From Candidatus Sungiibacteriota bacterium (GTDB lineage Bacteria > Patescibacteriota > Minisyncoccia > Sungbacterales > HO2-52-23), in contig JACPBG010000003.1 of assembly GCA_016180435.1 (NCBI GenBank), positions 77,791 through 141,790 on the forward strand: DNA of 64,000 nt, read 5' to 3'. A model generated the notes under the pieces. The model worked only from the letters and a program-made list of their open reading frames with translations. It had not been told where the DNA came from and did no database searches. The position numbers and the translations under genes were made by a program. Of this stretch, positions 2,987-63,757 are shown piece after piece (positions within the stretch are counted from its first letter, which is position 1; each line of letters begins with the position of its first letter).

Positions 2987-3211
2987 ATGGTGGAGATCCG
3001 TAAAAAAGAAGGAGAAACTCAAGGCGCATTTTTGCGCAGGTTTTCGCGTTCCATGCAGCGCTCCGGGGTTTTGATCCGCGCGCGGGGAAATCAGTTTTAT
3101 GAAGCCAAGCCCACGAAGCGCGTGATGAAAGAGAGGGCTTTAAGGAGAATTGCGGCTGGTAAGGAAAGAGAACGGCTGGATAAATTGGGAAAGTTGACGA
3201 AGGAGGAATAA
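2987..3211 (+). CDS. rpsU: 30S ribosomal protein S21
   Basis: GAFLRRFSRSMQRSGVLIRARGNQFYEAKPTKRVMKERA matches the S21 family signature. Confidence 0.85.
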   Translation: MVEIRKKEGETQGAFLRRFSRSMQRSGVLIRARGNQFYEAKPTKRVMKERALRRIAAGKERERLDKLGKLTKEE

Positions 3212-3645
3212 TTTGTCGGGGCGGTTTTCGTCCCGACTTTAAAAAAGACGCTCAGCGGAATAATCCTTAAATTTTTAAACCCTCGCTTCGCTAAGCGTAC
3301 GGGCCGCAACAAATTTTAGAATATTACATACTTCGTATTATCAGCGGCCCTCCCGATTCTTTTTAAAAGTCGGGACTCAACCGCGCATTCATGATGGGTG
3401 AGTATGGGGTTTGCTCATTGTATACGCTTTACTCCGCACCAAATTTTGACTGCCGTTTTAGTTTCAATCAAAGCAAGATGAACATCCATTCATGATATGA
3501 AATATTTACCGGTGGTTAAGCTTTAAGTACAGAAACTGTCAAAATTTTAGTGACGGGGCTTGCGGCGTTTTTTGTTTGTTTGACTTTTAGGGCCGTGACT
3601 ATATACTTAAAATAGTTTTTTTATTTTTCAAACAGAGGTGTTTTT

Positions 3646-4206
3646 ATGAATAGGAAAGTTCTTGGAATGCTTTGCGCTGTAATGGTTTTGGCCTTTGCAC
3701 CGTTGGCATACAGCCAGAATGTAGTGGAGATGAAGGGCGAGCAAGATTTCATGACCTGGGTAAGCGGTTTAAAGCTTGAGGCCGGGGGAGATGTGTATAA
3801 CCCAGCACTTAAAGAAACTAAACTAATTTATCCTGTTAAAATGAAAGTTATTATCGTACCCCAATTGATACGTGCCTCATTCAGTACCCAGGTATCATTT
3901 CAGAGTCATTCGGAACGATATACAGTAATTCTTACTGGTTTCGGCATGAACATCCCTTTTGAGGGGTCAGAACTAAGGGGACAAATAAACCCGCTTTTTT
4001 TCTTAGAGCTTGAAACATCACTTTTGAAATCCGAACATTTTGACTCATTACTTGAATCAAGTCGGAAGTTTATACCCATAGAAATTCAAGGGTATGTGGG
4101 TTTACAAGATCAGTTGAAGTTGGAAAAAAGCAAGGACTATCCGGGGAGTTTTGAGATACGAGTAAAGCTTCGTCCTACATTAATAAACGGCAAACCGTTG
4201 CCGTAA
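3646..4206 (+). CDS. Hypothetical secreted protein
   Basis: N-terminal signal peptide MNRKVLGMLCAVMVLAFAPLAYSQ; GAGGTG 8 nt upstream. Confidence 0.5.
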   Translation: MNRKVLGMLCAVMVLAFAPLAYSQNVVEMKGEQDFMTWVSGLKLEAGGDVYNPALKETKLIYPVKMKVIIVPQLIRASFSTQVSFQSHSERYTVILTGFGMNIPFEGSELRGQINPLFFLELETSLLKSEHFDSLLESSRKFIPIEIQGYVGLQDQLKLEKSKDYPGSFEIRVKLRPTLINGKPLP

Positions 4207-4929: not shown

Positions 4930-4972
4930 ATTAGTGAAAATTGATGGAAATCAAAATAGTGTTCGGCGCAAA

Positions 4973-4999
4973 TAAAAAAAATCCGAGGAAAGGTCCTCG
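4973..4999 (-). terminator. Rho-independent terminator for the minus-strand gene 5006..5611
   Basis: Minus strand reads caccgaggacctttcctcgg followed by tttttttt. Confidence 0.7.
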
Positions 5000-5005
5000 G
5001 TGTGA

Positions 5006-5611
5006 TTATGATTTGGTTTTTCGCGGTTTGTGAGTGCGAAATACTACCGTGGGGCGCAGTGCCAAGTAAAGCTCTTTTGCTTTTTTGCCGCGCGGGTTCA
5101 GGCGGTAATATTTATGGAATGCCGTGGCTGACAAAAATACTCGCCAGAGAAGGAATGCCTGTAAGAGCTTGTCTTTGGATTTATCTTCAGTAAAGATTTT
5201 CAGGTCTTTATACGCCCACTCCGCATATTGGCAGAGTTTGAGATAGGAGCGCACGAATTTTTGCACCGCTCGGCGAGTTTCTGGAGGATACGTCTCGCCC
5301 AGAATAAGATTTTTCGTATCCCGCGTAGTTTTTGAATCAGCGAGACGTTTTTTTGCTTCGTCTAGCCATTTTCCGGTCTCGAGTGAATAATCGACTCCAT
5401 CCCGTTTCGCCTGCCGAAGGATTCTTTTCTCGAATTCTTCGATCTTCATACGGACGGGTGTGGTTTTCATTTCGTTCCACGCTTCCTCAATATTGCGGAG
5501 TGCTTTTTGAATCACTGTCAGTTTCGTCGCATATACAACCTGCCCCTCGCCACTTCCTATTCCCATGATTCCCCCCCTTATTTTTTGGATGTTATCAGGA
5601 TCTATGTGCAT
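5006..5611 (-). CDS. Hypothetical protein
   Basis: 201-aa ORF bracketed by terminators; no recognised motif. Confidence 0.5.
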   Translation of the reverse strand: MHIDPDNIQKIRGGIMGIGSGEGQVVYATKLTVIQKALRNIEEAWNEMKTTPVRMKIEEFEKRILRQAKRDGVDYSLETGKWLDEAKKRLADSKTTRDTKNLILGETYPPETRRAVQKFVRSYLKLCQYAEWAYKDLKIFTEDKSKDKLLQAFLLWRVFLSATAFHKYYRLNPRGKKAKELYLALRPTVVFRTHKPRKTKS

Positions 5612-24259: not shown

Positions 24260-24376
24260 TATAAATTCGCTCCGGTTTACCGCGAGCGGTTTTTTATTTG
24301 TCTGAAATTTTATCTTTAACGGGGTTGACATTGGAAATATCCGTTATATGCTTAACACGAGTCCTTTGCTTTATTC

Positions 24377-24848: not shown

Positions 24849-24852
24849 CCAT

Positions 24853-24957
24853 TGACCCCGTTAGAGATGCGGAACGAAATCACGTCAAAGTTTATATATG
24901 ATTAAAGAATACTCTCAGTATGTGTTTAGATGTAACCCAAATCTCTAACGCGGGGTT
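24853..24957. repeat. Family G ('ccccgttaga') element, copy 1 of a tandem pair
   Basis: tgaccccgttagagatgcgg ... atctctaacgcgggg. Confidence 0.7.
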
Positions 24958-25070
24958 GACCCCGTTAGAAAGAAACAGAGAATGCTTTTAATGCGGGAAT
25001 TGTTTGTTTTTACGAATAAAAATGGATTGCTGTTGCTACTATATTTGTTTCTCTCTAACGGGGTTGACCG
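24953..25070. repeat. Family G element, copy 2 of the tandem pair
   Basis: ggttgaccccgttagaaagaaacag ... tttctctctaacggggttgac. Confidence 0.75.
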
Positions 25071-25079
25071 TTTAAACCG

Positions 25080-25430
25080 GGCTTGGTATACTTTTTTTAT
25101 TCGGAATTTAGTATTTTGCTTTTGAGGCAATGAGAGGCGCGAAGCGCTACAATAAGCAACCCCCCCAAAGTGAGCACTGGCCGACAAAATTTTCCATTAC
25201 GGAGCTTGAAAATAAGCCGCAGAGCGGCTTCATTCAGAAAATAAAAGAGTGAGTATATAGGCGGTTGAGACCGTTACAATTTGAGATAATGGGAGGCGCG
25301 AAGCGCTACAATAAGAAAATACTAAAGTGAGTATACACGCGGTTTTGGCAATATGATTTTGAAACAATCAGGAGGCGCGATAGCATGGTTTCTCCGCCCG
25401 GGGCGGAGAATATCGCGCCGGATGCTTAGT
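25080..25430 (+). repeat. Tandem degenerate 'aaagtgag...aatgggagg-cgcgaagcgc-aataag' units (L1), leader of the str operon
   Basis: ttttgcttttgaggcaatgagaggcgcgaagcgctacaataag; gataatgggaggcgcgaagcgctacaataagaaaat; aaagtgagtatacacgcggttttggcaatatgattttgaaa. Related to the region at 45342-45557. Confidence 0.55.
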
Positions 25431-26938: not shown

Positions 26939-29071
26939 ATGCCAAGAGAATATCCTTTAGAGAGTACCAGAGATATCGGCATTATTGCCCATATTGATGC
27001 CGGAAAAACGACCGTAACCGAGCGGGTGCTTTTTTATACCGGCGTATCGCATAAAATCGGCGAGGTGCATGAGGGCGATACGGTGATGGATTGGATGGAG
27101 CAAGAGCGCGAAAGGGGAATTACTATTACGGCGGCCGCAACGAATGTGTTTTGGGTGCCGACGCATGTCGGAGAACTTAGAACTGAGAACTTAGAACTTA
27201 GAAAAAAGAACGAATACAGAATAAATATCATAGATACTCCGGGACATATTGATTTTACCGTGGAGGTTCAGCGCTCACTTCGGGTATTGGATGGCGCGGT
27301 GGTGGTTTTTGACGGAGTGGCCGGAGTTGAGCCGCAATCCGAAACCGTCTGGCGCCAAGCCGATAAATTTAAAGTTCCGCGCATGTGTTTTATAAATAAG
27401 CTTGACCGCATGGGCGCGTCATTTGAGCGCTCGCTCAATTCCATTTATGAGCGACTAACCCCGAATGCGGTTTCGGTGGCAATACCCATAGGACACGAAC
27501 AGGAACACGAAGGCGTGATTGACCTTATGCGCATGAAGTCCGTGAAGTTTCTGGGAGATAAAGGAGAAAAACTTGAATTTGTTGAGATACCCGAGAATTT
27601 GAAATCCTATGCCGAGGAATGGCGCCATAAAATGGTTGAAAAAATTTCGGAAACGGATGACGCGCTTACGGATAAATATCTGGAAGGCAAAGAGATGACT
27701 GTCGAGGAACTGCGTGGCGCTTTACGCCGCGCGACCATTGGATATCGGCTGGTTCCGGTATTTTGCGGATCGGCGCTTAAAAATAAAGGCGTGCAGTTGA
27801 TGCTGGACGGTGTGGTTGATTATCTGCCCTCTCCTTTGGATATGCCGCCGGTAAAAGGAACTCATCCCAAAACCGGTGCGGAAGAAATTCGCGAAGCGAA
27901 AGATGATGCGCCATTTGCCGCGCTTGCTTTTAAATTGCAAACCGATCCTTATGTGGGACAACTTACATATTTTAGGGTTTATTCGGGCATGCTTAAAGCC
28001 GGATCTTATGTTTTAAATTCGGTAAATGGAGATCAGGAGAGGGTGGGGCGGATTTTGCGCATGCATGCCAATACCCGCGAGGAACTGAAAGAAATCGGCG
28101 CCGGAAATATCGGTGCGATTGTCGGTCTTAAAAATACCCGTACCGGAGATACGCTTTGCGATCCGGAGCATCCGGTTGTGCTTGAAAAAATCGTATTTCC
28201 CGAGCCGGTGGTATCTTTGAAAATTGAGCCCAAGACCAAGGCTGACCAGGAAAAAATGGGACTGGCCCTGCGGCGTCTGGGCGAGGAGGACCCGACATTT
28301 CGCATTAAAGGCGACATTGAGACCGGTGATACCATTATTTCGGGTATGGGTGAACTTCATTTGGAAATTATTGTGGATCGCATGAAGCGCGAATTTTCCG
28401 TGGAGGCCAATGTGGGCCGGCCGCAGGTGGCTTATAAAGAAACCATTAAAAAAACCGCGGAAGCGGAAGGAAAATATATTCGTCAATCAGGCGGACGCGG
28501 ACAGTACGGACATGCGTGGCTTCGGGTTGAGCCGCGCGAGCGCGGAAAGGGATTTGAATTTCTTGACGAGATCAAAGGCGGTATAATTCCGCAAGAATAC
28601 ATTCCGGCGATTGAAAAAGGGATTAAGGAGGCCATGGAAAAAGGTGTTTTGGCGGGGTACCCACTGGTTGATATGGCGGTCGCGGTTTATGACGGATCAT
28701 ATCATGAAGTGGATTCGTCCGAGGCCGCATTCAAAATCGCGGGTTCCATGGCTTTGCAGGAGTGCGTTAAGCGCGCGGGACTTGTGCTGCTTGAGCCGAT
28801 TATGAAAGTGGAGGTTGTGACTCCGGAGCAGTTTCTGGGCGAGGTTACCGGGGATTTGAATTCCAAGCGTGCGCGGATTGAAGAAATGTCCGAGCGCGGC
28901 CTGGGAATTAAGGTGATTGACTGCAAAGTTCCGCTTTCGGAAATGTTCGGATATGTTACGACTCTTCGTTCCTTGACGCAAGGCAGAGCCAGTTTTACTA
29001 TGGAATTTGATCACTACGAGGAAGTCCCGAATAATATTGCGCAGCTTATAATTGAAGGGAAGCGGCAGTGA
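26939..29071 (+). CDS. fusA: Elongation factor G
   Basis: [23 protein letters not shown] and all five EF-G domains. Contains a family F-encoded insertion ([15 protein letters not shown]) between G2 and G3. Confidence 0.95.
27172..27212. repeat. Family F heptad-repeat half-element, in-frame inside fusA
   Basis: gagaacttagaactgagaacttagaacttagaaaaaagaac. Confidence 0.7.
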
Positions 29072-29278
29072 TGCCAATCCAATGCGAATTTAATGTTTAC
29101 CCCGTTAGATAATAACCTTTTTTAAAAAGATGTGCTGTTGTTGTAAAAACCCTTTTAAAAATTTTATTGGTTGTCAAGAGATATCTAACGGGGCGAGTCT
29201 GGCGAATTGCGAATACTAAACACAAGATTTTATTAGCAATTTGTAGATTAGCATTTCATTTGTAGATTTGCATCATTG
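29066..29278. repeat. Family B element interrupted by a nested family G element
   Basis: cagtgatgccaatccaatgcgaatttaatg | G insert | tctggcgaattgcgaat...gcatttcatttgtagatttgcatca. Confidence 0.75.
29098..29193. repeat. Family G element nested in the B element
   Basis: tttaccccgttagataataacc ... agatatctaacggggcg. Confidence 0.7.
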
Positions 29279-29566
29279 CGTGCGAAGCACAAATAAAAAA
29301 TAGCGGCGTGGGACCGCATTAAGGCAAAAAGAGCGAGTCAATTTTAAACTTTAGTATATACACCCAACCGGCGCCTGCCACAATAATTGCAATAAAAATA
29401 AGAAAAGCGCCCCAGTCGAATTCGTAGATAAAACGTACGAGCGAAAATAAAATTTCAGAGATAGGACCTCGATCCGGCAGGGTGGGTAAAGAATATTCGT
29501 GCATAGCATTCTTTGTAATATATTATAGAGATCTATATTATGGACATATCAAAACTAAAAAATCTT

Positions 29567-29679
29567 GTCAACCCCGTTAGAGAGAAACAAACACATCAGT
29601 TATTGGGGAAAAGGTTATGTGTTAAAATAAAGGCGCTGTTTGCATGATTATCATTCCCTGTTTCTTTCTAACGGGGTCA
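29567..29679. repeat. Family G element (inserted after a promoter-like ttgtcaa)
   Basis: gtcaaccccgttagagagaaacaaac ... ctgtttctttctaacggggtcaa. Confidence 0.75.
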
Positions 29680-29723
29680 AGGCGAATCTTGACTTTATAT
29701 CAAAGATGGGATAAGTTTTTAAT

Positions 29724-29942
29724 ATGTCAATGGTCATAGAAAAAAAATATCACAAAAGTATTAGTGAGGTTTCGCGAAAGATGGGAATTAGAGAAAATGA
29801 TCTAGTGGGTCGTGCACTCGCTCTTTATTTAGATAGCGCAAAAAAAATTCTTGATGTAGAAAAAGAATTTAAGGCATGGGACGTTTTGAGCGATGAGTCG
29901 TTGGTTGGACTCGCTAAGCGTGTTCCAAGGCGGTCAATATGA
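29724..29942 (+). CDS. Putative antitoxin (partner of the MazF/PemK-like toxin)
   Basis: 72-aa ORF overlapping the toxin start by 4 nt (ATGA). Confidence 0.45.
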   Translation: MSMVIEKKYHKSISEVSRKMGIRENDLVGRALALYLDSAKKILDVEKEFKAWDVLSDESLVGLAKRVPRRSI

Positions 29943-30265
29943 AAAAGGGTGAAATTTGGTTGGTAGAAATTCCGGGCATTGACGGCCATGAACAGCGGGG
30001 ATTCCGCCCCGCGATTTTTATTGCGGACACCAAGACGGGCGTGGCCATAATTATTCCATGCACTTCTAATTTGCAAGCGCTTCGTTTCCCATTTACTATT
30101 CGTATTGAATCATCTCGCAGTAATGGATTAAATGAATTATCGGTTGCCCTGGTTCTTCAGCTTCGTGCTATTGATAAAAAGAGATTATTGAGAAAAATAG
30201 GACAACTTGATAATTCAGTTCTTAAAGAACTTGACGTGGTGATACGTAATCTTTTAGATTTATAG
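29939..30265 (+). CDS. MazF/PemK-family toxin endoribonuclease
   Basis: MKKGEIWLVEIPGIDGHEQRGFRPAIFIA has the typical PemK/MazF N-terminal signature. Confidence 0.75.
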   Translation: MKKGEIWLVEIPGIDGHEQRGFRPAIFIADTKTGVAIIIPCTSNLQALRFPFTIRIESSRSNGLNELSVALVLQLRAIDKKRLLRKIGQLDNSVLKELDVVIRNLLDL

Positions 30266-30382
30266 AGGACCAGTTTCGCGTACCCAAATAAAAATAGCGG
30301 CACGAGTCGAGGTAACCCATCGTGCATTCATTCTCGCTCTCCAATAAATAAGAACTACTATGGATATATCAAAATTAAAAAA

Positions 30383-30412
30383 TCTTGTCAAATATATATA
30401 GGAGATGGTATA
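30383..30412 (+). promoter_or_regulatory. Sigma70-like promoter for the hicBA cassette
   Basis: TTGTCA-N18-TATATT (cttgtcaaatatatataggagatggtatatt). The same ttgtcaa motif precedes the mazEF cassette. Confidence 0.4.
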
Positions 30413-30420
30413 TTGAAGAT

Positions 30421-30675
30421 ATGAAAAAACGACAAAAAATTAAAAAAGAAATCGCCACTTTTAATGCGGTATTTTTGGAAGAAAGCGATGGAGGATACAG
30501 CGTAAGTGTGCCTGCTTTGCCGGGCTGTTTTTCACAGGGTGATACCTTTGAAGCGGCCGTGGAAAATATAAAAGAGGCCATAGAACTTTATCTTGAAGAT
30601 GAATCTAAAGAGATTGATTTTTTGAAAGTTCGCCCTAAAAAAGAATTCATGGTACCAGTTGAACTTTATGCCTAA
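30421..30675 (+). CDS. hicB: HicB-family antitoxin
   Basis: FLEESDGGYSVSVPALPGCFSQGDTFEAAVENIKEAIELYLE matches the HicB/UPF0150 signature. Confidence 0.7.
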   Translation: MKKRQKIKKEIATFNAVFLEESDGGYSVSVPALPGCFSQGDTFEAAVENIKEAIELYLEDESKEIDFLKVRPKKEFMVPVELYA

Positions 30676-30895
30676 ATTGCCGCAGATTTCGGGAAAAGAG
30701 ATGGGGCGGGTTTTGGCTCGCCTCGGTTTTATATTCAAAAGCCAGAAAGGAAGTCATATGAAATTCATTCGCTTGCATGACGGCGCAAAAGAAATTATAG
30801 TAGTACCAAATCATAAAACGCTTCGTAAAGGAACATTTAGCGGCATATTAAAGCAGCTTAACATCACCTTTGAAAAATTACGCGAGCTGATGTAA
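30668..30895 (+). CDS. hicA: HicA-family toxin
   Basis: MPKLPQISGKEMGRVLARLGFIFKSQKGSHMKF matches the HicA/YcfA signature. Confidence 0.7.
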   Translation: MPKLPQISGKEMGRVLARLGFIFKSQKGSHMKFIRLHDGAKEIIVVPNHKTLRKGTFSGILKQLNITFEKLRELM

Positions 30896-30927
30896 TAAAA
30901 AATAGCGGTGCGGGTTCGTACACACAT

Positions 30928-31230
30928 ATGAGTGAAAAAATGGAAAAATTGAAAAGCGAAATATCTCCCGAAGAATATAAAAAAAAGCTTCTCACTGTTG
31001 CCGGCGAACTTTTCAAAGGGAAAGTCCCAAATTATTTCCTTGAATATCTTGATAATGATGAAATTGAAAGTGCCAGAGTATCACTTTTAGGCGCGATTGA
31101 TGCGTTCGTTTTTGGAAAAAATATATCAGATGAAGAAGCAAAAACAAAATATGAAATTCTGGGTTTTGATCCGGAGGAAGCAAGTAGGATCAGAAACTTA
31201 AGCAAAGCCAATAAAAGAAGATCTCAATAA
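30928..31230 (+). CDS. Hypothetical protein
   Basis: 100-aa ORF preceded by the same aaataaaaaatagcgg leader repeat. Confidence 0.4.
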   Translation: MSEKMEKLKSEISPEEYKKKLLTVAGELFKGKVPNYFLEYLDNDEIESARVSLLGAIDAFVFGKNISDEEAKTKYEILGFDPEEASRIRNLSKANKRRSQ

Positions 31231-31293
31231 TCAAATTTATTTTGCATTTTATTTTTTACGTTTTGTAGCAGAACAGCGATAAATTTTAAAAAT

Positions 31294-31593
31294 ATGGAGT
31301 GGGTAAAACTCAAAAATTTGGTAAAACAAAATGGAGATAAGTTTGTGTTGGTTGAAAATGGGGAGCCGGAAATTGTGATGATGTCTTTTCATGAATATCA
31401 GAAACTCGCTAATCATAATGCGAATACGGCGAATTTGCGTACGAATGTCACGAATCGCGAAGACGACAACTATTATATGGATGTATCCGCGGGCCGTTTG
31501 CCGGAAACCGAATTTGTATCACCCCACGAGTTAGAAGCGCCCGGACTTCCGGTGCGGCTTGAGGATATCCGGCTGGATGATCTGCCCATTTGA
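31294..31593 (+). CDS. Phd/YefM-like antitoxin-domain protein
   Basis: NGEPEIVMMSFHEYQKL resembles the Phd/YefM N-terminus; C-terminal extension; no toxin partner found. Confidence 0.45.
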   Translation: MEWVKLKNLVKQNGDKFVLVENGEPEIVMMSFHEYQKLANHNANTANLRTNVTNREDDNYYMDVSAGRLPETEFVSPHELEAPGLPVRLEDIRLDDLPI

Positions 31594-34402: not shown

Positions 34403-34543
34403 TACCCCGTTAGAACGCCGCCGACTCCTGCTCGCCTCGCTAAAGCTACGGCGAAGCGGGTCGGTGGTAACGAACGATAGAGATAGCCAATGGGAGTGTA
34501 ATGCTCCCATTGGCGGATCGTGAAGCGCCCGTTCTAACGGGGT
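34403..34543. repeat. Family G element with GC-rich interior
   Basis: tttaccccgttagaacgccgccgactcctgctcgcc...gcgcccgttctaacggggt. Confidence 0.7.
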
Positions 34544-34624
34544 TTACGAAATACTAATTGTTACGAATATACGAATCCAAATCGGTTTTATTAGTAAATT
34601 CGTACTGATTCGTATTTCGTAAAG
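34543..34624. repeat. Family A element
   Basis: tttacgaaatactaattgttacgaatatacgaatcc...attagtaaattcgtactgattcgtatttcgtaaag, then ttt + ATG of rplC. Confidence 0.8.
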
Positions 34625-35376: not shown

Positions 35377-36015
35377 ATGAAAATCAAAGTTTACAACCAA
35401 GAAGGAAAAGAAGCAGGAACTGCGGATTTGCCGGACGGTGTGTTTGGGTTGAAGTGGAACGCGGATTTGGTGCATCAGGTGGTAACTGGCCAGGCCGCGA
35501 ATTTGCGTAGAGGCACGGCGCATGCTAAAGGCAGAAGTGAAGTTCGCGGAGGCGGGAGAAAACCCTGGCGGCAAAAAGGCACCGGTCGCGCGCGCCATGG
35601 CTCTATCCGTTCTCCCATTTGGATCGGAGGAGGGGTTACGCATGGCCCCTTGAAAGAAAAAAGTTATCATAAAAAAATCAACAAAAAGATGGCAAAAAAA
35701 GCCCTTTTTACGGCACTTTCCGCCAAAGCGCGGGACAATGAAATTGTTATTTTGGAGGACTTGAAATTCTCGGAAGCTAAAACCAGGTATGCCGCAGAAA
35801 TTTTCAGGAATTTATCGCAAGTTGACGCGCTCAAAGACATTGTAAAAGCCAAAACTCTGCTTGCGTTTCCGGAAAAAAGCCATGATTTAAAGCGCGCATT
35901 TCGTAATTTGCCGCGAGTCGGCATGGACGAGGCCAGGAATTTGAATGCGCATGAAGTATTGCAGTACCGTTATATTCTTATGTCCAAAGCTGTGTTAGGA
36001 ATATTTAAGCAGTGA
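35377..36015 (+). CDS. rplD: 50S ribosomal protein L4
   Basis: GGGRKPWRQKGTGRARHGSIRSPIWIGGGV. Stop TGA is contributed by the family B element. Confidence 0.9.
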   Translation: MKIKVYNQEGKEAGTADLPDGVFGLKWNADLVHQVVTGQAANLRRGTAHAKGRSEVRGGGRKPWRQKGTGRARHGSIRSPIWIGGGVTHGPLKEKSYHKKINKKMAKKALFTALSAKARDNEIVILEDLKFSEAKTRYAAEIFRNLSQVDALKDIVKAKTLLAFPEKSHDLKRAFRNLPRVGMDEARNLNAHEVLQYRYILMSKAVLGIFKQ

Positions 36016-36172
36016 TGCCAATCCTATGCGAATTTAATGCCAATCTGGCGAATTGCCAATAAATATTCTTCGAGTGAAATCGAGATGATACCTTAATGTA
36101 TATTCTCGACAAGCTCGAATAGTAACGATTCGTAATTTGTAGATTAGCACTTCATTTGTAGATTCGCATCAT
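36009..36172. repeat. Family B element, long variant
   Basis: agcagtgatgccaatcctatgcgaatttaatgcc...ttcttcgagtgaaatcgagatgatacc...gattcgcatca. Confidence 0.8.
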
Positions 36173-36176
36173 ATTG

Positions 36177-40317: not shown

Positions 40318-40608
40318 ATGAGGAAACTTAAAGGTATTGTCACATCCGATAAGATGCAAAAGACCGTCGGAGTGCGAGTAGATCGGTTAAAAAAACACCC
40401 AAAATACGGGAAATATTTTCGTACAACGCAAAAGTTTAAAGCACATGACGAAAAAGGGGAATATAAAATTGGCGATCTGGTTATTATTCAGGAAACAAGG
40501 CCGCTGTCCAAAGATAAAAGATGGCGTGCAGTTTCTTTAGTAAAACGCGGGATTGTGGAAACAGATGAGAAGGAAGAAAGCAGTGATGCCAATCCGATGC
40601 GAATTTAA
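40318..40608 (+). CDS. rpsQ: 30S ribosomal protein S17, C-terminus extended into the B element
   Basis: KGIVTSDKMQKTVGVRVDRLKKHPKYGK. The final SSDANPMRI* is encoded by family B sequence. Confidence 0.85.
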   Translation: MRKLKGIVTSDKMQKTVGVRVDRLKKHPKYGKYFRTTQKFKAHDEKGEYKIGDLVIIQETRPLSKDKRWRAVSLVKRGIVETDEKEESSDANPMRI

Positions 40609-40743
40609 TGCCAATCTGGCGAATTGCCAATAATTATTCTTCGAGTGTAATCGAGAAGTACCTTAGGGTATTATTCTCGACAAGCTCGAATGATAACCGA
40701 TTCGCAATTTGTAGATTAGCATAAGATTTGTAGATTGGCATCA
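40579..40743. repeat. Family B element, long variant
   Basis: agcagtgatgccaatccgatgcgaatttaatgccaatctggcgaattgccaat...ttcttcgagtgtaatcgagaag...gattggcatca. Confidence 0.8.
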
Positions 40744-40750
40744 TATTAAA

Positions 40751-41116
40751 ATGATCCAGCTTCGTTCTATGGTAAAAGTGGCAGATAATTCTGGGGCTGT
40801 TTTGCTCCAAGTTTTTCAGGTATCGCGCGGATCCCGCCATCGTTATGCGCGTATTGGCGATATGGTTGTTGCTTCGGTAAAAATTGCCGAACCTGGCAAG
40901 GCGGTTAAGAAAAAAGACGTTGTACACGCAGTGATTGTGCGAACGCGATCCCCGTATCGTCGCAAGGATGGGACCTATGTGCGTTTTGATGATAATGCCG
41001 CAGTAATACTTGACGGGACAGAACCCAAAGGAGGAAGGATTTTTGGTCCGGTAGCCCGGGAATTGCGCGATAGAGGATTTACAAAAATTGTTTCATTGGC
41101 GTCAGAAGTCGTATAA
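40751..41116 (+). CDS. rplN: 50S ribosomal protein L14
   Basis: [16 protein letters not shown]...[11 protein letters not shown]. Confidence 0.9.
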
Positions 41117-41280
41117 AGCAGTGATGCCAATCCTATGCGAATTTAATGCCAATCCGGCGAATTGCCAATAATTATTCTTCGAGTGAAATCGAGATGATAC
41201 CTTAATGTATATTCTCGACAAGCTCGAATAGTAACGATTCGTAATTTGTAGATTAGCATAAGATTTGTAGATTGGCATCA
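41117..41280. repeat. Family B element, long variant
   Basis: agcagtgatgccaatcctatgcgaatttaatgccaatccggcgaattgccaat...gattggcatca. Confidence 0.8.
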
Positions 41281-41287
41281 TATTAGA

Positions 41288-41606: not shown

Positions 41607-42149
41607 ATGCCGATCCAATCTTTACAAGAGCGATATAATAAAGACATTGTGCCGGCAATGGTGAAGCGATTCGGATATAAAAATATAATGGCCGTTCCAC
41701 GGATCCAAAAGGTTGTTTTGAATTGCGGAGTTGGGAAATTGCGCGACGAGAAACAGCGGGAAGAAGTGATCAAGTTTTTGACTTTAATTGCCGGTCAAAA
41801 GCCTTCGCCGCGCTCTGCGAAAAAAGCCATAGCGTCATTTAAAACGCGTAAAGGTCTTGTTATAGGATATCAAGTGACATTACGGGGAAGGCGCATGTAT
41901 GATTTCATTTCCAGGTTCACAGATATAGCGCTCCCGCGCACCCGTGATTTTAGGGGAATTGATGCAAAATCGTTTGATAGCGGCGGGAATTTGACAATTG
42001 GAATTAAAGAGCATATAGTATTTCCTGAAATGATCGGAGAGGATTACCATTTTTTGTTCGGCCTTGAAGTTACGATAGTGACCACGGCTCCAAGGCGAGA
42101 AGAGGGGGTTGAATTATTAAAGTTGATGGGATTCCCAATAAAGCAGTGA
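41607..42149 (+). CDS. rplE: 50S ribosomal protein L5
   Basis: NIMAVPRIQKVVLNCGVG...GMDITIVTTA-like core. Stop TGA is contributed by the B element. Confidence 0.9.
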   Translation: MPIQSLQERYNKDIVPAMVKRFGYKNIMAVPRIQKVVLNCGVGKLRDEKQREEVIKFLTLIAGQKPSPRSAKKAIASFKTRKGLVIGYQVTLRGRRMYDFISRFTDIALPRTRDFRGIDAKSFDSGGNLTIGIKEHIVFPEMIGEDYHFLFGLEVTIVTTAPRREEGVELLKLMGFPIKQ

Positions 42150-43870: not shown

Positions 43871-44236
43871 ATGGGATTGAAACAGGAAAAAAGAGATCGT
43901 CGACACAAGCGTGTACGAAGTCGAATCCGAGGAACGAGCACGCGGCCGCGCCTTTCGGTCTTTCGCTCTAACCGCCATATTGCGGCCCAGCTTATTGATG
44001 ATGAAGCCGGCAGGACGCTTTTATCCGTTAGCGATATGGATATCGGTACGGGCAAGAAAAAAAATTCCCAATCCGGATCATTATACGTCCGCGCCGAAAA
44101 AGTCGGTACTCTGCTGGCAGAAAAAGCTCAGAAACTTTCTATGGCGTCGGTTGTGTTTGACCGCGGGGGATATGCGTATCATGGCGCCGTTAAAGCCTTG
44201 GCGGATGGAGCAAGGAAAGGAGGATTACAATTTTAA
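43871..44236 (+). CDS. rplR: 50S ribosomal protein L18
   Basis: RPRLSVFRSNRHIAAQLIDDEAGRTL...VFDRGGYAYHGAVKALADGARKGGL. Confidence 0.85.
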   Translation: MGLKQEKRDRRHKRVRSRIRGTSTRPRLSVFRSNRHIAAQLIDDEAGRTLLSVSDMDIGTGKKKNSQSGSLYVRAEKVGTLLAEKAQKLSMASVVFDRGGYAYHGAVKALADGARKGGLQF

Positions 44237-50255: not shown

Positions 50256-50493
50256 CAATTCCTAATTGCCTAATTGTCTAATTTCTAATAAAATGCCCAA
50301 TAAAGAAATTAAGAATTAAGGCCTTAGAAATTTTATTAGGTTCACCCCGTTAGAAAGAAACAGAAGGTATTTTTAGTGCAGAAATTATCTATTTTTATGA
50401 ATAAAAACGAGTTGCAGTTGCTACTATATTTGTTTATTTCTAACGGGGTAAATTAGGAATTAGGTGAATTTGGAATTTTAGTTCTTGCTCGCG
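50256..50493. repeat. Family D element containing a nested family G element
   Basis: caattcctaattgcctaattgtctaatttctaataaaatgcc...ttttattaggt | G insert | aaattaggaattaggtgaatttggaattttag. Compare the intact D copy at 55030-55145. Confidence 0.8.
50343..50458. repeat. Family G element nested in the D element
   Basis: caccccgttagaaagaaacag ... tttatttctaacggggt. Confidence 0.75.
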
Positions 50494-55029: not shown

Positions 55030-55145
55030 ATTTCTAATTACCTAATTGCCTAATTTCTAATAAAATGTCCAATAAAGAAATTAAGAATTTAGGCCTTAGA
55101 AATTTTATTAGGTGAATTAGAAATTAGGTGAATTTGGAATTTTAG
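55030..55145. repeat. Family D element (intact)
   Basis: ttctaattacctaattgcctaatttctaataaaatgtcc...aattttattaggtgaattagaaattaggtgaatttggaattttag. Confidence 0.8.
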
Positions 55146-56543: not shown

Positions 56544-56576
56544 CAAAAACCCGCGTAGGCGGATTTTTGTTATCCT

Positions 56577-56600
56577 TGATGCATCTATAAGCCGAATTCT
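56577..56600. terminator. Bidirectional hairpin terminator (rnhA on plus, rnpB on minus)
   Basis: aaaaacccgcgtaggcggatttttg. Confidence 0.6.
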
Positions 56601-56603
56601 GTT

Positions 56604-57093
56604 CCGCATTTTTTTATATTTTTGCGGAGATGATCATTTATCTAGGCCAAAGATTTCTCATTTGGCTCAAGCGGATTTTCCGCAATTGCGGATTACCTTG
56701 CACCGGATAGGAGTTTTTCACCGCGTATTGTTGCCAGTACGCGCTGTGAGCTTTTACTTTTACCTCGCCGAAGCGAAGCTTATCCCGCGCGAAGGCGGGC
56801 TCACTCTTTTCACCCTTACCTCCTCCACCATAAAAACCTTTAGAGTTTTTTTGATGACGATCGGCGGTATTGTTTCTGTGACACTTTCCCGGTCATGGCG
56901 GCCGTTAGCCGCTATCTCTAACGCTGCATAGCAGCGTAGAACTTAGAACCAAGATCTTAGAACTTAGAAAAACGACTAAGATCTAAGTTCTAATACTCTA
57001 AGTTCTGCGTTGCTATGCAACGCTGGTGTTCGGACTTTCCTCCCCCCAGTAATGTTTTGCATTAATGGGAGCGATCATCCAATGCATCAAGGT
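56604..57093 (-). ncRNA. rnpB: RNase P RNA (bacterial type), interrupted by a family F palindromic insertion
   Basis: Minus strand shows ggaggaaagtccgaacacc (P4 5' strand), gtcacagaaac, ggtaagggtgaaaagagtgagcc, ggtgcaaggtaatccgc, gcttgagccaaatgag...ggcctagataaatgatc...gcggaacagaattcggcttatagatg (E. coli M1-like 3' third). P1 pairs ccttgatgcat/atgcatcaagg. Confidence 0.75.
56935..57004. repeat. Family F palindromic element inserted inside rnpB
   Basis: tagaacttagaaccaagatcttagaacttagaaaaacgactaagatctaagttctaatactctaagttct, flanked by hairpins acgctgcatagcagcgt and gcgttgctatgcaacgc. Confidence 0.75.
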
Positions 57094-57126: not shown

Positions 57127-57238
57127 GTCAACCCCGTTAGAGAGAAACAGGGATTCTCATTTATTTTCAAATATCTCTGTGTTTATAAAAACCTTTTGTG
57201 TGCAAATCACCGTGTTTGTTTCTTTCTAACGGGGTCAA
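57127..57238. repeat. Family G element
   Basis: gtcaaccccgttagagagaaacaggg ... gtttgtttctttctaacggggtcaa. Confidence 0.75.
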
Positions 57239-58172: not shown

Positions 58173-59513
<1,341 letters not shown>

Positions 59514-59665
59514 GCAGTGATGCCAATCCGATGCGAATTTAATGCCAATCTGGCGAATTGCGAATAATTATTCTTCGAGTGAAATCGAGAAGATACCTTA
59601 AATGTATATTCTCGACCCGCTTCGCTCTCGCTACAGCGAGGCGAGCAGGCTTGTAGATTGGCATC
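59514..59665. repeat. Family B element, long variant with rearranged right arm
   Basis: gcagtgatgccaatccgatgcgaatttaatgccaatctggcgaattgcgaat...ttcttcgagtgaaatcgagaag...gattggcatcacacc, then tATG. Confidence 0.75.
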
Positions 59666-63642: not shown

Positions 63643-63757
63643 TCATGAATCCCGTTAGAAGTTTATGTCTAAATATTTCACGGGATTGGTTAATAGTCAA
63701 AGTTCTCAATTTCAAATTTGATTTTGGAGTTAAAGGACTTCTAACGGGATGAATACA
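63643..63757. repeat. Family G-variant element ('tcccgttagaag') whose right TIR contains the atpD start codon
   Basis: atgaatcccgttagaagtttatg ... ggacttctaacgggATGaat. Confidence 0.65.

Follow-up and report, generated by a model that had tools for sequence, protein, structure and literature searches.

Bacterial MITEs such as the Correia elements of Neisseria are non-coding units of ~100-150 bp that end in inverted repeats, duplicate a short target, occur as many dispersed intergenic copies near or in promoters, and can nest in one another. REP/REPIN sequences are many-copy intergenic palindromes for which the mover is presumably a small nuclease encoded at another locus and acting in trans (RAYT, an HUH enzyme). 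In these respects both resemble the repeat family described here, which we call G. A 4-bp target duplication is a classical signature of DDE transposases, and IS1380/piggyBac-type DDE elements combine it with termini starting CC(C), as G does. GIY-YIG nucleases also occur as selfish genes between host genes, as with I-TevI and the Seg genes of T4-like phages, and homing of this kind uses one long cognate site with no terminal inverted repeats or target duplications. The GIY-YIG nuclease Slx1 cuts branched DNA. GIY-YIG enzymes are hydrolytic nucleases, and we know of none for which strand transfer has been shown.

We analyzed a 64-kb stretch (the window) covering a ribosomal-protein region of Candidatus Sungbacteria (Patescibacteria). 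It contains eight G elements of 94-138 nt, plus one solo end, among repeats of three other families, A, B and D:

24313-24324: solo right terminus of G, degenerate (TCTTTAACGGGG), with TTGACA directly after it
24856-24955: G, copy 1 of a tandem pair, with TTGA at 24852-24855 and 24956-24959
24960-25063: G, copy 2 of the tandem pair, TTGA on both sides
25064-25092, plus strand: promoter-like site upstream of rpsL, TTGACC-17-(TG)TATACT, its TTGA being the triplicated target
29066-29278: palindromic B repeat that follows fusA and overlaps the fusA stop codon at its start, the left arm interrupted by G
29100-29193: G nested in this B, flanked by TTTA (29096-29099) and CGAG (29194-29197) in place of the single CCAA of intact B copies
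29572-29676: G, flanked by TCAA on both sides, with the left context TTGTCAA reading TTGACA on the minus strand
34405-34542: G in family A, 138 nt, with a GC-rich structured interior and TTTA on both sides
34543-34623: palindromic A repeat (TTTACGAAATAC...GTATTTCGTAAA), located upstream of rplC, into which the preceding G is inserted
50256-50493: D repeat split by G, with a GT2 glycosyltransferase gene on one side and a GalT-like gene on the other
50345-50448: G nested in this D, flanked by TTCA (50341-50344) and TAAA (50449-50452) in place of the TGAA of the intact D copy
55030-55145: D copy following pgk, intact and used as the reference for the nested case
57132-57234: G, flanked by TCAA on both sides, within the minus-strand promoter for RNase P RNA, at its -35 hexamer
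63650-63749: G of the TCCC...GGGA subtype, flanked by TGAA on both sides, at the start codon of an AtpD-like gene

G elements begin with CCCCGTTAGA on the left and end with TCTAACGGGG on the right. Allowing up to one mismatch, CCCCGTTAGA occurs 17 times in the window against 3.0 expected, a count reached in none of 100 shuffles, and the matches pair into the eight elements. Both termini pair in the predicted DNA fold of every copy, with z from -2.3 to -6.8; the upper value belongs to copy 1 of the tandem pair, whose right terminus has a 1-nt insertion (TCTAACGCGGGG). Of the eight, two form a tandem pair, and single copies lie within a B repeat, a D repeat and the terminal TTTA of an A repeat.

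To examine the nested copies we removed the G core and aligned interrupted with intact hosts. The B repeat after fusA then aligned end to end with the intact B at 42142, and the D repeat at 50256-50493 with the copy at 55030-55145, each with exactly 4 extra nucleotides. The preliminary description had read both as host elements split by a G, and the alignments bear this out; the exact ends it gave for G shift, to 29100 (not 29098) and to 50345-50448 (not 50343-50458). Because the boundaries are clean in length, the hosts do not reduce to subfamilies lacking insertion boundaries, although the 4-mers flanking the B- and D-nested copies are not copies of the host 4-mer. The G described as abutting the A repeat at 34543 is indeed adjacent to it and, more exactly, sits within the TTTA that opens that element. 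The head-to-tail pair placed at 24853-25070 was likewise confirmed as TTGA[G1]TTGA[G2]TTGA. The G1 and G2 interiors are only 52% identical and unrelated, so the pair represents two separate insertions, not a tandem duplication; the interior of copy 2 is instead 79% identical to that of the copy at 50345. No G in the window is interrupted by another family, and nested G-type copies were also found outside it. This nesting does show that G came later than those particular A, B and D copies.

Comparison with sister species lends further support to mobility. Three orthologous sites are filled in one Sungbacteria species and empty in its sister, in both directions. The rpsL promoter holds two G copies in the window and is empty in sister loci L132 and L139, with L132 retaining the same promoter and a single TTGA; the site upstream of rplC is filled in the window and empty in L132, where the family A copy at 34543-34623 is also missing. 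Conversely, the tuf promoter carries a G in L132-L138 and is empty in the window. That sister-species G is 86% identical to the window copy at 57132, a different locus. The mobility proposed for G from nesting is thus upheld, on firmer ground than nesting gives, by exact 4-nt duplications at 6 of 8 window copies, by filled and empty orthologous sites, and by termini shared across phyla.

The targets follow a pattern. The usual duplicated target is 4 bp, TNNA or less often CNNG, and the TTGA-flanked copies are located in TTGACA or TTGACC -35 boxes. On the minus strand the RNase P RNA promoter reads TTGACA-17-TATTAT (57131-57103), with the G at 57132 in its -35 hexamer. TCCC-type copies lie at ATGAA start codons: at 63650 the last A of the terminus plus TG rebuilds the ATG of the AtpD-like gene. 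Coding members of the family, described below, share this start-codon target, and the stop codon of their GIY-YIG gene overlaps the host ATG. Insertion into TTGACA -35 boxes and ATGAA start codons is shown to regenerate them.

The window copies do not look recent. G had been proposed to be the youngest and most active family, with transposition ongoing, and for this the data give no support: the best pairwise identity between G interiors is 79%, with most pairs at ~50%, against up to 99% among A copies and 96-100% among B copies. A decayed solo end is present, and the window has no nuclease gene. The same G occupies the same site in 7 of 7 sister-population contigs, and polymorphism was not seen among these. 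Searches for metagenome contigs of the window's own species found none, a 25-nt pattern from the 3' end of fusA had no match in JGI metagenomes, and no record of the window's exact EF-G protein was found.

The G termini are 10-18 bp long and of the form (C/T)CCCGTTAGA.../...TCTAACGGG(G/A). We found the same termini at at least 120 loci in many phyla, including Patescibacteria, Omnitrophota, Planctomycetota and Desulfobacterota. Exact 4-nt direct repeats flank 68 of 141 elements, against ~7% expected. The 34405 copy matches an element in a Saccharibacteria MAG with 88% identity over 73 nt of interior, and on the left the two share an identical stretch of 30 nt that runs from the 4-nt flank through the terminus into the interior. 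About half of all elements have non-identical flanks that do not copy the host 4-mer, which a simple cut-and-paste model does not explain. Inverted target duplication was considered as a source of these mismatched flanks and dropped because exact inverted flanks are not enriched (5 of 141, against ~10% expected by independence). Interiors are diverse: some are whole tRNA genes or conserved, covarying hairpins, and "empty" palindromes of 29-31 nt consist of an arm, 7-9 nt and an arm. No copies were present among 2.9 million viral contigs in IMG/VR, which argues against a viral origin, and tblastn found no plasmid-borne relative among 72,556 PLSDB records. Rfam 15 returned nothing at the gathering threshold and only sub-threshold hairpin noise at E <= 1.

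Units bounded by exactly these termini encode a GIY-YIG open reading frame, as in loci L051, L003 and L057. Among 80 sampled nuclease-encoding metagenomic loci, 72 have at least one terminus-bounded unit of ~275-286 bp; many of these loci are probably orthologous, as judged by shared wider flanks, so such counts overstate independence. A full-length unit consists of a terminus, 8-14 nt with a ribosome-binding site, an 86-codon nuclease gene and the other terminus. Gene and termini are tightly coupled physically: the terminal repeat itself serves as the last five codons (LSLTG), at a fixed distance in the same 72 of 80 loci, and the stop codon comes from the target duplication. Homologues number more than 1,700 at 70-85% identity, mostly exactly 86 aa long and ending KNRLKRFLSLTG, and dN/dS of ~0.10 indicates strong purifying selection. 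The protein matches Pfam PF01541 (GIY-YIG; E = 5e-14) and PDB 1zg2 (E = 5e-10), and residues Y3, Y5, Y16-T17-G18, R26, H30, E62 and N76 are invariant. It consists of one minimal domain whose C-terminal helix is basic, and the best structural matches of its AlphaFold2 model (pLDDT 90) are UPF0213 BH0048, the I-TevI catalytic domain and Slx1 (nuclease domain, rmsd 1.8 A over 72 columns). By its motifs, its conserved Arg, Glu and Asn and its alpha/beta fold, the 86-aa protein is a member of the GIY-YIG superfamily.

Short derivatives of 29-128 nt adjoin coding copies, and the non-coding interiors have no detectable derivation from the nuclease gene. In ~1.1 Mb around more than 200 elements, GIY-YIG was the only recurrent open reading frame between termini. 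The 64-kb window and the sister-species loci contain no GIY-YIG gene. Literature searches, using the exact terminus and combining GIY-YIG with MITE, TIR, TSD, CPR and UPF0213/YhbQ, returned no description of such elements, and for the coding kind (~280 bp, encoding only an 86-residue GIY-YIG nuclease) we could not find a published description. Horizontal transfer of GIY-YIG genes from Patescibacteria has been noted, with nothing further (PMC12455944).

As the nuclease units are bounded by exactly the G termini, G looks like the non-coding form of a GIY-YIG mini-transposon. We consider it likely, at a probability of roughly 70%, that G is a MITE-like short form of a widespread family of ~275-286-bp GIY-YIG elements and that the window copies are mostly old. 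G has three attributes of a MITE: a short non-coding unit with pairing terminal inverted repeats (94-138 nt; 10-18 bp), a duplication of fixed length (the B- and D-nested copies also gain 4 nt, mismatched), and presence or absence at the three orthologous sites between the window and L132/L139. Termini in common with GIY-YIG coding units were seen in other genomes; in this genome, covered over 64 kb that contain no such gene, a coding partner is putative. In the mechanism that we propose, the nuclease would act in trans, supplied by a coding copy that is either resident at another place in the genome or transiently acquired. It may recognize the termini, possibly once these have formed a hairpin or cruciform, by analogy with Slx1, and would make the cuts that move coding and non-coding copies alike, with host repair or ligation presumably completing integration. 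The copies in the window are probably mostly old, diverged insertions and not the product of a current burst.

An unlikely alternative is that G elements are MITEs of a classical DDE insertion sequence (IS1380-, IS5- or IS701-like) and that the GIY-YIG gene is a mere passenger, like the tRNA genes. The 4-bp duplication and CC-starting termini do resemble the IS1380/piggyBac type, GIY-YIG nucleases are not known transposases, and the interiors are interchangeable, tRNAs and structured hairpins included. Against this reading, the open reading frame of the coding units ends in the terminus at a fixed distance and is under strong purifying selection. Moreover, no terminus-bounded unit in the ~1.1 Mb surveyed exceeded ~600 nt or held a transposase, and none of the 200 fetched loci, a limited sample, had a transposase between termini. 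In DX4.bin27 (locus L009), two inverted copies surround a 686-aa secreted protein, which is not a transposase. Much the same exchangeability of interiors between constant arms, together with the 29-31-nt empty palindromes and the structural kinship to the I-TevI catalytic domain, could instead suggest a free-standing homing endonuclease whose recognition-site halves are the termini and whose interior spreads by double-strand-break repair. We regard this as very improbable: whole units, arms included, are missing from empty sites, inverted termini and target duplications accompany many unrelated 4-bp targets, and arms of 10-14 bp seem too short as homology for recombination-dependent homing.

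We give hardly any credence to the idea that G elements do not move today and are conserved functional hairpins, whether as inversion sites or as RNA or DNA signals for regulation or processing, kept at promoters and gene starts, with nesting reflecting composite repeat subfamilies. Several copies do sit exactly at -35 boxes and one at a start codon, some interiors are covarying hairpins or tRNAs, and the copies are old and diverged. Against immobility stand the exact duplications of 4 nt, the presence of just one target copy at empty orthologous sites, the unrelated interiors, the clean +4-nt boundaries in three repeat families, the lack of an Rfam match, and a GTT/AAC motif order opposite to that of integron attC. 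Identity with attC itself was rejected because this core order is reversed: attC sites read 5' RYYYAAC ... GTTRRRY 3' and form cassette arrays, whereas G reads GTTAGA...TCTAAC on both strands, with no arrays and no integrase. REP/REPIN identity was set aside given the 4-bp duplications of G; RAYT was looked for in the open reading frame lists only.

Beyond the assignment of G to a GIY-YIG element family, we propose more tentatively that G elements may be non-autonomous members of a previously unrecognized superfamily of prokaryotic DNA transposons. Its sole protein would be the 86-residue GIY-YIG nuclease in a ~280-bp unit whose termini double as coding sequence, with the 4-bp duplication supplying the stop and rebuilding the -35 box or start, and it would have spread horizontally via Patescibacteria, Omnitrophota and other uncultivated phyla. 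The tRNA and hairpin interiors raise the possibility that tRNA genes are cargo and that the GIY-YIG gene could be one cargo among several. To our knowledge, a unit of ~280 bp would probably be smaller than any other autonomous transposable element.

If the GIY-YIG nuclease is the mobilizing enzyme, it would represent a new catalytic class among prokaryotic DNA transposons, in a very compact selfish element tolerated in streamlined candidate-phyla-radiation genomes. Its insertion logic, in which a 4-bp duplication rebuilds TTGACA -35 boxes and ATG codons and the element's stop overlaps the host start codon, suggests how a transposon can colonize gene-dense genomes, and even ribosomal-protein operons, without killing its host. 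These elements account for orphan annotations as "GIY-YIG nuclease family protein", which run into the thousands, and signals of horizontal transfer that link Patescibacteria with other groundwater bacteria likely come from them. With an 86-aa protein and 14-bp ends, the elements offer a short, testable system for biochemistry.

Compared with known systems, the family combines familiar parts in its own way. UPF0213 proteins (YhbQ/BH0048) and Slx1 share the GIY-YIG domain and fold of the 86-aa protein, but the G-family gene has inverted repeats on both sides, together with target duplications, a genomic behavior for which we found no description for YhbQ or Slx1 in the searchable literature. 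Unlike I-TevI and Seg genes, the G family has inverted termini and non-coding derivatives, is found at hundreds of short targets that are unrelated to one another, and had no copy in the viral contigs. REPINs have no target duplication, whereas G has one of 4 bp, and the two differ in conserved motif and in enzyme class, the partner of G being a GIY-YIG nuclease. In contrast to IS1380/piggyBac elements, G has no DDE transposase between its termini in the fetched loci. Finally, unlike Correia elements and other bacterial MITEs, G has termini common to many phyla around unrelated interiors, its 4-bp TNNA target is functionally regenerated as a -35 box or start codon, and the only coding relative found is not a DDE insertion sequence but the ~280-bp GIY-YIG unit.

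The window is a region of ribosomal-protein and translation-factor genes (rpsL, rpsG, fusA, tuf and the S10/spc operons, then pgk and ATP synthase genes) with a GC content of ~45%, and palindromic repeat families occupy nearly all of its intergenic gaps. Its EF-G shares 92-93% identity with a metagenomic protein group and 80-87% with proteins whose annotation reads Candidatus Sungbacteria/Sungiibacteriota, which places the host in the Patescibacteria (CPR). The motif CCCCGTTAGA, allowing at most one mismatch, occurs 17 times versus 3.0 expected, and as paired ends these occurrences delimit eight family G elements, 94-138 nt long (CCCCGTTAGA...TCTAACGGGG); one copy (63650) carries a TCCC...GGGA terminus variant, and a decayed solo G end lies at 24313-24324. 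The termini pair upon folding in all eight copies (z -2.3 to -6.8), and the 4-nt direct flanks are identical in six (TTGA, TTGA, TCAA, TTTA, TCAA, TGAA). By alignment the interiors are largely unrelated, with 79% identity for the best pair, 61-65% in a loose cluster of four and ~50% for the remainder. A GC-rich hairpin with the loop CATTA(A/C/G)A and different but compensating stems is present in the 34405-34542 copy and in loci from other genomes or metagenomes (L015, L018, L021, L037, L072 and L077), suggesting a conserved structured module in some G elements.

To compare orthologous sites, we used sister Sungbacteria contigs (L132-L138; fusA ~85% nucleotide identity) and the complete genome CP066690.1. 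The rpsL promoter reads ATTTGACC-17-TATACT in L132, with a single TTGA, and TTGA[G]TTGA[G]TTGACC-17-TATACT in the window. Upstream of rplC, the sequence is contiguous in L132 and contains A and G elements in the window. In L132-L138 a G, with TTGA duplicated, sits in the TTGACA box upstream of tuf, where the window has a single TTGACA. This G of the sister species and the window copy at 57132, which lies at a different locus, upstream of RNase P RNA, are 86% identical. In CP066690.1, one G sits within another at the rpmC start codon. The preliminary description had claimed that G is nested in B and D elements, forms a tandem pair and abuts an A element, and all of these arrangements are borne out, with the two nested G cores (the element without its 4-nt flanks) corrected to the positions listed here:

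29100-29193, G core splitting the B copy after fusA
50345-50448, G core splitting a D copy
TTGA[24856-24955]TTGA[24960-25063]TTGA, tandem G pair with TTGA before, between and after the two copies
34405-34542, G within the TTTA that starts the A element at 34543

With the G core taken out, the interrupted B copy matched the intact copy at 42142 and the interrupted D copy that at 55030 end to end, each with exactly 4 additional nt. Because the interiors of the tandem copies are unrelated, we read the pair as two successive insertions into one regenerated target, not as a duplication. Together, the identical flanks, the three orthologous-site comparisons, the related copy elsewhere and the nesting show that G is mobile, a unit bounded by inverted termini and associated with target duplications.

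Other presence/absence differences occur in the same region. The family A copy at 34543-34623 upstream of rplC is likewise missing in the sister species (compare L132 15190-15215), so family A has moved or been lost over the same timescale as G. The 2.2-kb block 29062-31305, wholly missing from the sister species, includes two toxin-antitoxin-like pairs in the fusA-tuf interval (29700-31250), a 72-aa ORF with a PemK/MazF toxin (29724-30265) and HicB with HicA (30385-30895). Within the sister population the rplC-rplD spacer comes in two versions unrelated to each other, one with 116 nt of CAGATT-type repeats (L132 15833-15949) and one of 314 nt with a 77-aa minus-strand ORF (L134 14553-14867, and L137), an intergenic presence/absence polymorphism without G involvement. 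In the MAG DX4.bin27 (L009), identical 94-nt G elements at 2166-2259 and 4941-5034, in inverted orientation with inverted flanks, enclose a gene for a 686-aa secreted protein, and two other contig ends also carry identical copies; the pair may be a composite or an assembly-breaking repeat.

The pattern CCCCGTTAGA-N70-100-TCTAACGGGG was found at at least 120 loci with unrelated interiors, the listed matches including Patescibacteria, Omnitrophota, Planctomycetota, Desulfobacterota, Spirochaetota, Nitrospirota-like and other MAGs, and had zero matches in 2.9 million viral contigs. Exact 4-nt direct flanks were observed in 68 of 141 elements versus ~7% expected. Exact inverted flanks were not enriched (5 of 141 versus ~10% expected); each single flank conforms to TNNA or, less commonly, CNNG. 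The nested copies depart from simple duplication: flanks are TTTA/CGAG in B where the intact host has CCAA, and TTCA/TAAA in D where it has TGAA. These are not duplications of the host 4-mer, the adjacent host bases are unaltered, and non-identical flanks of other G elements still fit TNNA/CNNG. Possibilities are rewriting during repeated cleavage or re-insertion, or flank exchange among copies.

Longer units with G termini (L051, 281 nt; L003, where a nested G breaks up the coding unit; L057) encode an 86-aa GIY-YIG nuclease. Close homologues (70-85% identity) number more than 1,700 in multiple phyla, most of them exactly 86 aa with a C-terminal KNRLKRFLSLTG. The codons CTA TCT CTA ACG GGG of the gene are themselves the terminal repeat, and the flanking 4-mer supplies the stop codon (TAA, TGA or TAG). 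Of the 80 metagenomic loci that code for the nuclease, 72 contain at least one unit of ~275-286 nt bounded by the two termini, with short derivatives of 29-128 nt near the coding units, showing that the G termini are those of a GIY-YIG mini-element. The protein looks functional, judging from invariant GIY/YIG, Arg, His, Glu and Asn positions, a dN/dS of ~0.10 with synonymous sites saturated, and an AlphaFold2 model (pLDDT 90) that comes closest in structure to UPF0213 BH0048, the nuclease domain of Slx1 and the catalytic domain of I-TevI. In five G-terminus elements from other phyla (L036, L047, L071, L073 and L097) the interior is an entire tRNA gene, and another two (L019 and L070) adjoin a tRNA end; those containing a tRNA may carry it as cargo or be insertions wrapped round tRNA genes.

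In the window and many other loci, TTGA/TCAA-flanked copies lie in -35-like TTGACA/TTGACC hexamers, and after duplication an intact -35 box remains beside the original -10. Two such sites in the window are:

25064-25092, promoter-like site with a G target, 10 of 12 promoter positions
57131-57103, minus strand, promoter upstream of RNase P RNA, 11 of 12 promoter positions

TCCC-type copies, coding and non-coding, lie at ATGA(A/G), where the terminal A of the element plus TG rebuilds the start codon of the host gene; when the copy is a coding one, its GIY stop codon, TGA, overlaps the host ATG (e.g. L121 genes 3001-3261 and 3258-4067), and the 63650 copy rebuilds the ATG of the AtpD-like gene. 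This siting may reflect either target choice or survival of harmless insertions. At 63646-63751, the original ATG, displaced to the left of the element, opens a 34-codon stop-free frame across it that terminates in a TGA overlapping the rebuilt ATG (ATGA); the arrangement could keep the AtpD-like gene translationally coupled to atpG, or it could be chance.

The RNase P RNA gene (56572-57090, minus strand; RF00010, 131 bits) is 519 nt long and has a 119-nt insertion (~56896-57014) where the model has 15 nt. Within this insertion, 56938-56993 is a palindromic repeat of family C (AGAACTT heptamer), and a helix of the ribozyme seems to have taken up and tolerated a repeat element. The tRNA-Arg(TCT) at 9833-9921 (minus strand) is predicted at 89 nt, ~13 nt above a standard class I tRNA, and may hold an insertion or intron. 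Family B (934-1103, 36007-36175, 40578-40746, 41116-41284, 59513-59621) has a short form of ~105 nt and a long form of ~169 nt, the latter with an extra ~64-nt palindromic module (TTCTTCGAG...CTCGAATAG) in the loop, another element-in-element arrangement. In repeated cases the conserved B start (GCAGTGATGCC) shares bases with the stop codon of the gene before it.

The nesting shows that G arrived later than the particular A, B and D copies that host it, and no G copy in the window is interrupted by another repeat family. The further proposals that transposition is ongoing and that G is the youngest and most active family are not supported, and several observations speak against current activity: the solo end is decayed, one and the same G is present in all seven population contigs of the sister species, and G interiors are at most 79% identical versus 99% among A copies and 96-100% among B copies (families D13, D5, D6). 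A search for sequence data from the window's own species, JGI metagenomes included, yielded none. The 99% identity between the A copies at 44233 and 44823 suggests later activity of that family than of G. For the 34405 copy, a Saccharibacteria MAG contains a matching element (88% identity over 73 nt, with another 30 nt identical at the left end), which hints that G copies arrive by horizontal transfer without amplifying in place.

We favor, at roughly 55-60% confidence, a mechanism in which a GIY-YIG nuclease provided in trans would recognise the element ends and cut the element-flank junctions with a 4-nt stagger, leaving host repair or ligation to finish transposition. Given the Slx1-like fold of the nuclease, the substrate may be a hairpin or cruciform. 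Against this mechanism, we know of no GIY-YIG enzyme that transposes DNA, the 64-kb window contains no GIY-YIG nuclease gene, and in roughly half of the elements overall the two flanks differ. A search for a DDE partner for G across 200 loci found none, and G tested negative as an attC site, a REP/REPIN sequence, a homing endonuclease gene or an Rfam RNA. Our literature search did not turn up any account of GIY-YIG mini-elements with inverted termini; the searchable literature is incomplete, so an earlier description may exist. That the G/GIY-YIG family constitutes a new class of transposon is a tentative proposal, to which we give slightly under even odds; in the window, G behaves like a bacterial MITE.
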